A stretch of 64,000 bases of DNA from NCBI GenBank assembly GCA_964016885.1, contig OZ024748.1, forward strand, positions 26,722,001 to 26,786,000. The letters are read 5' to 3'. Both the position numbers and the translations under genes were made by a program. The stretch is from Eledone cirrhosa. Lineage: Eukaryota. This document shows positions 59,041-59,201 of the stretch, piece after piece; position 1 is the first letter of the stretch, and the number at the start of each line of letters is the position of its first letter. Below the pieces are notes generated by a model, which was given only the letters and a program-made list of their open reading frames with translations, made no database searches and was not told the origin of the DNA.

Positions 59041-59201
59041 ACAAAGTGTTAAAACGATCAAATTTTAGTTTAGAACATTTATTTGCCGACAATTGTTTCT
59101 TCCAGAGGGAAATCTGGAATCATCAGAGACTTCCCTCTGGAAGAAACAATTGTCAGCAAATAAATGTTCTAAACTAAAATTTGATCGTTTTAACACTTTG
59201 T
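59041..59201. repeat. Long inverted repeat (~72 bp arms) with HHR core at apex
   Basis: Arms acaaagtg..gagggaa / ttccctc..cactttgt with one mismatch by eye. Confidence 0.95.
59085..59130 (-). ncRNA. Minimal hammerhead ribozyme with intact catalytic core
   Basis: Minus strand reads gtct CTGATGA TTCCAGA-tttccc-TCTGGAA GAAA C-AATT-G TC ggc aaataaa: canonical CUGAUGA/GAAA core, 7 bp stem II, palindromic stem III and GUC site. Stem I is weak (2-3 bp). Confidence 0.75.

Follow-up and report, generated by a model that had tools for sequence, protein, structure and literature searches.

Does a hammerhead ribozyme core at the apex of a long hairpin represent a working ribozyme, part of a regulatory unit or a by-product of transposition? 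Such a locus lies in a 64,000-nucleotide stretch of the Eledone cirrhosa genome (assembly GCA_964016885.1, contig OZ024748.1, positions 26,722,001 to 26,786,000), referred to here as the window. A preliminary description of this DNA, made from its letters, took the core to be intact and proposed that its transcript switches between ribozyme and hairpin. The analysis reported here indicates that the locus very probably goes back to a Hydra-clade Penelope-like element (PLE) that inserted, 5′-truncated, into a (TA)n tract as two back-to-back pieces of terminal repeat, and that its ribozyme is likely non-functional. The observations behind this reading are the family membership of the sequence, two fixed outer ends, variable inner ends, the loss of stem I and the family core CCGAUGA.

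The hairpin and the state of its ribozyme

Read on the minus strand, the letters are those first described: a CTGATGA box (59126-59120) is followed by stem II, TTCCAGA and TCTGGAA around the loop TTTCCC (59119-59100), then by GAAAC-AATT-GTC (59099-59088), and AATAAA starts 4 nt past GTC (Table 1). This hammerhead motif is the single match in the whole window (chance expectation 0.09) and was found in 5 of 100 shuffles of the window. The inverted repeat was likewise recognized correctly, with its length put at ~72 bp; the arms (59041-59115 and 59127-59201) measure 75 bp around an 11-nt loop and carry two mismatches (59087 and 59112), both G.U on the minus strand. The span 59041-59201 first assigned to the feature covers the hairpin, but the element itself reaches further, to ~58932, giving an insertion of 270 bp that is 5′-truncated and lies in a (TA)n tract. 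The hairpin has a predicted folding energy of -119.5 kcal/mol (z = -25; 0/200 shuffles equally good), and transcripts of both strands are predicted to form the 75-bp duplex, at -119.5 and -111.7 kcal/mol.

Table 1. Features of the inserted element and its target, in window coordinates
Feature	Position	Strand	Remarks
Short (inverted) arm	59127..59201	+	Element sense, from 16 nt before G12 to the near end ...ACACTTTGT; family letters at both arm-difference positions
Fold-back junction	59127..59128	.	2-nt microhomology CT common to both arms, by comparison with parent copies
Hammerhead core, 5′ box	59120..59126	-	CTGATGA, family state CCGATGA; in hairpin loop
Stem II and loop II	59100..59119	-	7 bp, base pair U-A; private C>T at 59112
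GAAA box, self-complementary helix III (ACAATTGT), GTC cleavage triplet	59088..59099	-	
Base after GTC	59087	-	Private A>G
Tail-bearing arm	59041..59128	-	5′-truncated 2 nt before core; pairs with short arm over 59041-59115
One-sided tail	58932..59040	-	~109 nt after 21-nt deletion; far end TTCTTATTA(CTA)
(TA)n target tract, tail side	58900..58931	.	(TC)n precedes
(GT)n then (AT)n, short-arm side	59202..59327	.	

The core cannot be called intact: stem I lost its 5′ strand to the fold-back, and adopting the ribozyme structure would cost ~51 kcal/mol. In the parent, TATGCT before the core pairs with AGCA after GTC; at the locus the inverted arm stands in place of this strand, and two pairs of helix I (U.G and C-G) are left. 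The base after GTC (59087) is changed as well, being A in 231/234 family segments, and nearly all family contigs in the short-read runs carry the other letter. The locus agrees with the canonical core C3 U4 G5 A6 N7 G8 A9 / G12 A13 A14 A15.1 / U16.1 H17, and lacks both the helix I that closes the core and the G10.1-C11.1 first pair of helix II, which is U-A here; its U4 is also not the family state. Forcing the ribozyme fold has a predicted cost of 51 kcal/mol when the transcript is complete and of 12.5 kcal/mol when the upstream arm is left out; for a parent copy it is 5 kcal/mol. With the ribozyme fold this much worse than the hairpin, the proposed switch falls away, and the predicted folds suggest that the ribozyme at the locus is likely dead. 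A scan of 55000-64000 with Rfam hammerhead models, a check that the preliminary description had named, returned no match at E ≤ 5; the models that did match were those of microRNAs, on hairpins and microsatellites.

As to the surroundings, no convincing host exon was found among the ORFs of at least 150 aa in the window, which yielded simple repeats and one LINE-type reverse transcriptase (RT) remnant in two frames (16533-18856, minus). Two tRNA-like Rfam matches just below gathering score (56353-56410 and 61940-61997) are probably heads of a tRNA-derived SINE.

The parent family and its core position 4

A genome search with the locus as query, in which 40 of 2,132 first-look candidates were scored, recovered copies in both linear and folded form, with a PLE ORF upstream of family copies. 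In upstream copies, the natural frames of this ORF show RT motifs and a C-terminal YIG domain. The earlier reading of the locus as a piece of PLE terminal repeat (pLTR) that folded back when it inserted is supported. The RWK and DKT motifs appear as RVRWKAF and LADKTKN in copy L145, and the CxCx5C linker (CNCRPNKTC) and CNLCILE...LLN...CPH (CxxC..E..N..CxH) in copies L045/L061, without CCHH. RWK, DKT, CxCx5C and CxxC..E..N..CxH are the marks by which the Hydra clade is defined in the account of Craig et al. 2021 (PMC8557442), and the family ORF, compared by eye, resembles the Hydra proteins of its supplement motif by motif. Atlas neighbours carry RVT_1 and GIY-YIG domains; a Pfam search of ORF pieces gave no RT or GIY-YIG match, and a PDB search of the ORF gave no match. 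On motifs and ORF layout, the family is assigned to the Hydra-clade C-terminal EN+ PLEs. Between RT and endonuclease, Asn/His/Lys-rich low-complexity stretches (L061:5182-5900, L145:854-2584) bring to mind the N-rich insertions known from rotifer PLEs (PMC3846280). Some family copies adjoin other PLE ORFs, which by eye look Neptune- or Poseidon-like (L069:3900-7200, minus; L070:4621-5808); one of these has its own inverted arm and a canonical hammerhead.

Positions in the family are counted from G12 of GAAAC (0 = 59099), so that cleavage would fall after +11. In read-through tandem copies the ribozyme is followed by the near end at +56/+60, the far end at ~+191 and, at +236, the start codon of the following ORF. 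The two fixed ends bound a tail of ~130 nt, which in a sister family measures ~160 nt. Several features of EN+ PLE insertion units were found, namely a partial tandem (pLTR), an adjacent inverted 5′-truncated copy and a one-sided tail, and both flanks of the locus are of the (TA)n/(AT)n target type, as for a Hydra-clade insertion. Extra CA/GT units occur at 8/60 classified near ends, as at the locus, where expansion of the element's terminal GT is the likely source of the (GT)n beside the short arm. Runs of (GT)n/(CA)n beside (TA)n that were apparently seeded in this way lie at window positions 59202-59234 and in copies L078, L129 and L187. In the read-through copies L178, L181 and L330, the far end falls in a TACTAAT-like word with a pyrimidine tract and AG after it, an arrangement that resembles a branch point and acceptor. 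The tail was also considered as a 5′-leader intron, with the near end as donor and the far end as branch point, and this found no support: a spliced-junction pattern for one of two possible donors had 0 matches, and older copies do not retain the first AG.

Within the Hydra clade as described in PMC8557442, shared features are the above motifs around E and N without CCHH, the (TA)n target, a hammerhead near the 3′ end, a relaxed first pair of stem II and a 5′-truncated inverted copy noted for Penelope-13_HM. In contrast to the 25/25 families of its file S2, which have CTGANGA (U4), the lineage studied here has CCGANGA. Among these families, Hydra-1_oBim carries CTGANGA in a ribozyme that is unrelated in sequence. 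The family further differs in a 3′ untranslated part of > 1 kb with an internal microsatellite, and its tail contrasts with the 30-40 bp given for PLE tails in the literature. Poseidon PAc of Anolis (Frangieh et al. 2024, PMC11167929) is reported to share two fixed ends bounding the tail, an AT-rich target, an uncleaved RNA template and the absence of ends at the ribozyme cut site. However, the PAc ORF starts inside the ribozyme and includes the tail. In the family both ribozyme and tail are part of the leader, 236 nt ahead of the ATG, and the tail is ~4x longer.

Conservation of CUGAUGA in the family, whose absence the preliminary description had named among its refuting conditions, is contradicted by the family copies: among 100 listed of 280 matches the core is CCG in 87, CTG in 8 and CCA in 5. 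Over 203 segments, position 4 has C in 184 and T in 18, with A at position 5 in 9; decay at control CpGs amounts to 18/201 and 15/201, and to 11/251 and 13/253. U4 shows no linkage to subfamily sites, and between the arms of one insertion it is discordant in 9/51 pairs, with T shared in 2/51. Because the family has C4, the decay rate is CpG-like and U4 is unlinked to subfamilies, the U4 of the locus is a derived letter that most likely arose from CpG deamination, either here or in a source copy. The excess of T4 over A5 (18 vs 9), together with the T shared in 2/51 arm pairs, shows that part of the U4 came down from source copies, and the best-scoring relative likewise has CTG. A young sister family has CTG in 0/48 segments and CCGAAGA in 47/48. 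The locus copy itself has lost a second CpG, decayed to CpA within the tail (58932..59040), together with 21 nt of that tail.

The canonical CUG might instead have been written by the junction, with TCTG supplied by the inverted stem II strand and followed by CT slippage, a route that appears unlikely. In fold-backs L003 and L004, with exactly ...GAAGTCTGATGA at the junction, the junction itself does write CTGATGA. At the locus, however, an extra 2-nt insertion would be needed, the CT before the core is the parent's own two bases, and CpG decay is at hand, affecting position 4 in ~9/100 copies and the second CpG of the locus copy. With derivation of U4 by deamination preferred, the textbook core of the locus is likely accidental, and it cautions that a textbook ribozyme core in a single copy can arise by mutation from a non-canonical parent.

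Origin of the fold-back

Insertions were sampled with two exact patterns outside the junction, which contributed 100 listed of 161 matches and 88 from 100 listed of 118, 12 insertions of the second set being left out as duplicates of the first. Of the resulting 172 rows, 168 insertions were kept and 4 dropped (locus edge, secondary or duplicate tails); about seven insertions (e.g. L100, L113) were lost to the de-duplication key or the identity filter. An inverted arm is present in at least 77/168 tail-anchored insertions, a lower bound because only 1.5-4.5 kb upstream was covered. The near end of the inverted arms is fixed at +58 to +62 in 77/77 and abuts TA-rich DNA in 76/77. Simple fold-backs account for 51/168 insertions, and in 10/168 both inner ends fall within -35..+27, as at the locus, each with its own junction.

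A special tie between fold-back and ribozyme, which the first reading had assumed, finds no echo in these ends, as junctions are scattered along the element. The junction rate at -29..+10 is 1.3x that of -309..-30 (p = 0.21), 2/229 arm ends lie at -21..-18, and none of the 229 lies at the cleavage site (+11..+13). This last count indicates that insertion templates are uncut, as reported in vitro for PAc (PMC11167929). In the 46 simple fold-backs with a loop > 3 nt, the unique loop belongs to the tail arm in 24 and to the short arm in 22. Inner ends lie ≤ 15 nt apart in 16/50 cases, vs 3.4 expected (0/20,000 permutations), and the arms share subfamily letters, being discordant in 1/46 at -57 and 6/76 at +15. 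A self-propagating hairpin element, MITE-like or retrozyme, was rejected on the ground that no junction is shared and every fold-back has its own.

From the loop on either arm, the correlated inner ends and the shared subfamily letters we infer that two cDNAs were made. The GIY-YIG nuclease would nick both strands of the (TA)n target, and the RT would then prime two cDNAs on opposite target strands, one for each fixed initiation site in the 5′ leader, using uncleaved RNA from one source as template for both. Both cDNAs would terminate prematurely, at one shared template break or close to it, and would be joined by the 2-nt microhomology CT into a hairpin with a one-sided tail. Later decay of the copy would account for the two arm substitutions, the 21-nt deletion and the CpG loss, and deamination, here or in the source copy, would have made the textbook U4 out of the family C4. 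For another PLE, in vitro work has described two initiation sites and extension on both strands from uncleaved RNA (PMC11167929).

Rotifer PLE palindromes have been read differently, as self-priming on an antisense template (PMC3846280), and the same element could have yielded the present hairpin by snap-back of one strand copying itself rather than from two cDNAs. Near-equal inner ends in 16/50 and short palindromes or microhomologies at several junctions would suit this model, as would the precedent of its proposal for rotifer PLEs in that source. It is nevertheless improbable here, given that the loop lies equally often on either arm (24 vs 22), many arm pairs are unequal by hundreds of bases, and the short arm terminates at a single fixed position, where un-inverted copies end too.

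Two further explanations may be weighed against the same data. That the hairpin is a fold-back chimera of the assembly is scarcely credible: no contig from four short-read runs spans the whole stretch, but the arms differ at two positions, with family letters in one and private letters in the other, and the outer end coincides with the near end fixed in the family and borders a microsatellite, like 76/77 other arms. It is also very unlikely that the locus is a retained regulatory unit, its transcript switching between ribozyme and hairpin or feeding siRNA or ADAR activity against the family. A transcript of either strand would form the 75-bp duplex, and in a rotifer PLEs are documented targets of small RNAs (PMC3846280); yet there is no competing ribozyme fold and stem I is lost, the divergence of the arms (2/75) and their decay match those of ordinary copies, and the same layout recurs in the 10/168 insertions, each with its own junction. 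For an A-to-I signature, the arms offer one A>G only, present in 1/234 family segments, and the siRNA/ADAR idea would hold equally for about half of the family's insertions. The two-cDNA insertion thus remains the preferred reading, and the locus is an ordinary product of a known PLE insertion mode.

Variability and upkeep of the ribozyme in the lineage

The base of stem II is a mutation hot spot in the family, at -20/-19 (window 59119-59118) and mostly T>A. These first two helix II bases vary in 49/211 and 33/209 segments, against a T-column median of 2.7%, and 29/100 pattern-selected copies vary over four positions at the helix II base. The variants are without subfamily linkage, and the arms of one insertion differ at the hot spot in 13/52 and 14/51 pairs, compared with 135/3,733 at other T sites. 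The -20 T>A also appears in independent short-read contigs, in which -19 is not listed. In the young sister family, -19 is changed in 186 matches vs 7 at a control T. The excess comes to ~7-fold when arms are compared within the main family and to 27-fold relative to the control T in the young one. By hand count, 14 head-to-head pairs share the -19 variant among 100 listed copies of the young family and ~23 head-to-head pairs occur among 100 unselected copies, which indicates that much of the -19 variation in this family is inherited. The rate rises weakly with divergence in the main family (26, 37 and 37% by tercile, p = 0.10) and scales roughly with age between families.

These data are best explained by a DNA-level hot spot where the inverted repeat has its base, although an RT-level step may be the cause instead. 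Strong-stop or strand transfer is disfavoured by the lack of an end pile-up, by subfamily linkage that is unbroken across the ribozyme and by the invariance of -20 in 100 listed copies of the young family. Gene conversion from the sister family was set aside, as position 7 is changed in 4/205 copies vs 39/211 at -20, and so was GANTC context alone, other ATT/GATT sites not being hot.

The non-canonical core is shared by relatives, sister subfamilies in the flanks of copies keeping CCGANGA. The young sister family, also of the Hydra clade, combines the core CCGAAGA with a GUA triplet and has 3,921 exact matches to a 33-letter ribozyme pattern; its loci (L324-L383, e.g. L335:1500-1830, G000:C3:324557599-324557879) show the two-end layout and many head-to-head pairs. 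It is very young, 18 of its best 40 matches being identical over 281 nt. Thirty-eight segments from 30 of its loci have 72 to 100% identity to the reference, so that the ribozyme is unchanged in flanks up to ~28% apart, under a pattern that selects for an unchanged ribozyme. The flanks of copies also hold minimal hammerheads of at least 10 further families, whose core is the canonical CTGANGA and whose helix II has G-C at its base (e.g. L013, L028, L033, L038, L054, L075, L102); canonical motifs are common in this genome.

Two features named at the outset hold for the parent family, namely the short palindromic stem III of dimer-type minimal hammerheads and the covariation of stem II, compensatory changes being seen among subfamilies. 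Helix III is AATT in 11, AGTT in 10 and AGCT in 27 cases in the young family, and GATT in 2 and GATC in 1 in other families, a series indicating that self-complementarity is kept via G.U intermediates. Covariation was assessed in 15 hand-picked subfamily representatives, from which the structure itself was drawn; in this set, whose pairing statistics are inflated because the sequences are related, 92.5% of cells are paired, vs 30-45% in slid controls, and three pairs are changed on both sides (7 cells; 2/500 shuffles). Helix III is paired in 100% of cells, with two pairs showing both-side changes, one helix II pair is A-U in 9 and G-C in 5, and helix I (4 bp) is 93% paired. The first helix II pair, by contrast, varies across the lineage between U-A, A.G and C.A.

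The metazoan PLE hammerheads described by Cervera and de la Pena 2014 (PMC4209133) are similarly minimal and of type I, with a helix II of 7-8 bp, a helix I of ~4 bp, a small palindromic helix III read as dimer-forming, opposite-strand motif pairs 100-700 bp apart and high variability within a genome, which that paper flagged as unexplained. Unlike them, the family lacks G10.1-C11.1 and has C at position 4, and the locus copy lacks helix I; the core variant reported in that paper is U3-A8. Perreault et al. 2011 (PMC3088659) cite a viroid U4C hammerhead, which has a C at core position 4 and was reported to be far slower in vitro but sufficient in vivo. There it is a rare variant of one viroid, whereas here it is the standing state of a retrotransposon lineage with thousands of copies. 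PMC3088659 was the only paper found for "U4C", and among the papers listed for hammerheads with a C4 core (15 of 28) none is on PLEs by title; further literature searches turned up nothing about this family. Lunse et al. 2017 may list such variants.

What is new is modest and lies at the level of the family: its lineage conserves a C4 hammerhead, its tail is long, and the base of stem II is a hot spot. It is possible, if rather doubtful, that selection keeps a deliberately slow, dimer- and protein-dependent cutter in this lineage and that the 10- to 27-fold helix II hot spot is a footprint of a step in the element cycle. If so, most transcripts would stay uncut for reverse transcription, the hot spot would explain the long-noted hypervariability of PLE hammerheads, and the C4 ribozyme would be invisible to CUGANGA descriptors, with the consequence that some "ribozyme-free" PLE clades would carry missed variants. 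What PLE hammerheads do is an open question in the discussions of PMC8557442 and PMC11167929. The young and abundant sister family, with its non-canonical core and compensatory helix series, is material for tests of ribozyme function, and the two sharp priming ends and hundreds of arm pairs are material for tests of inverted PLE insertion.
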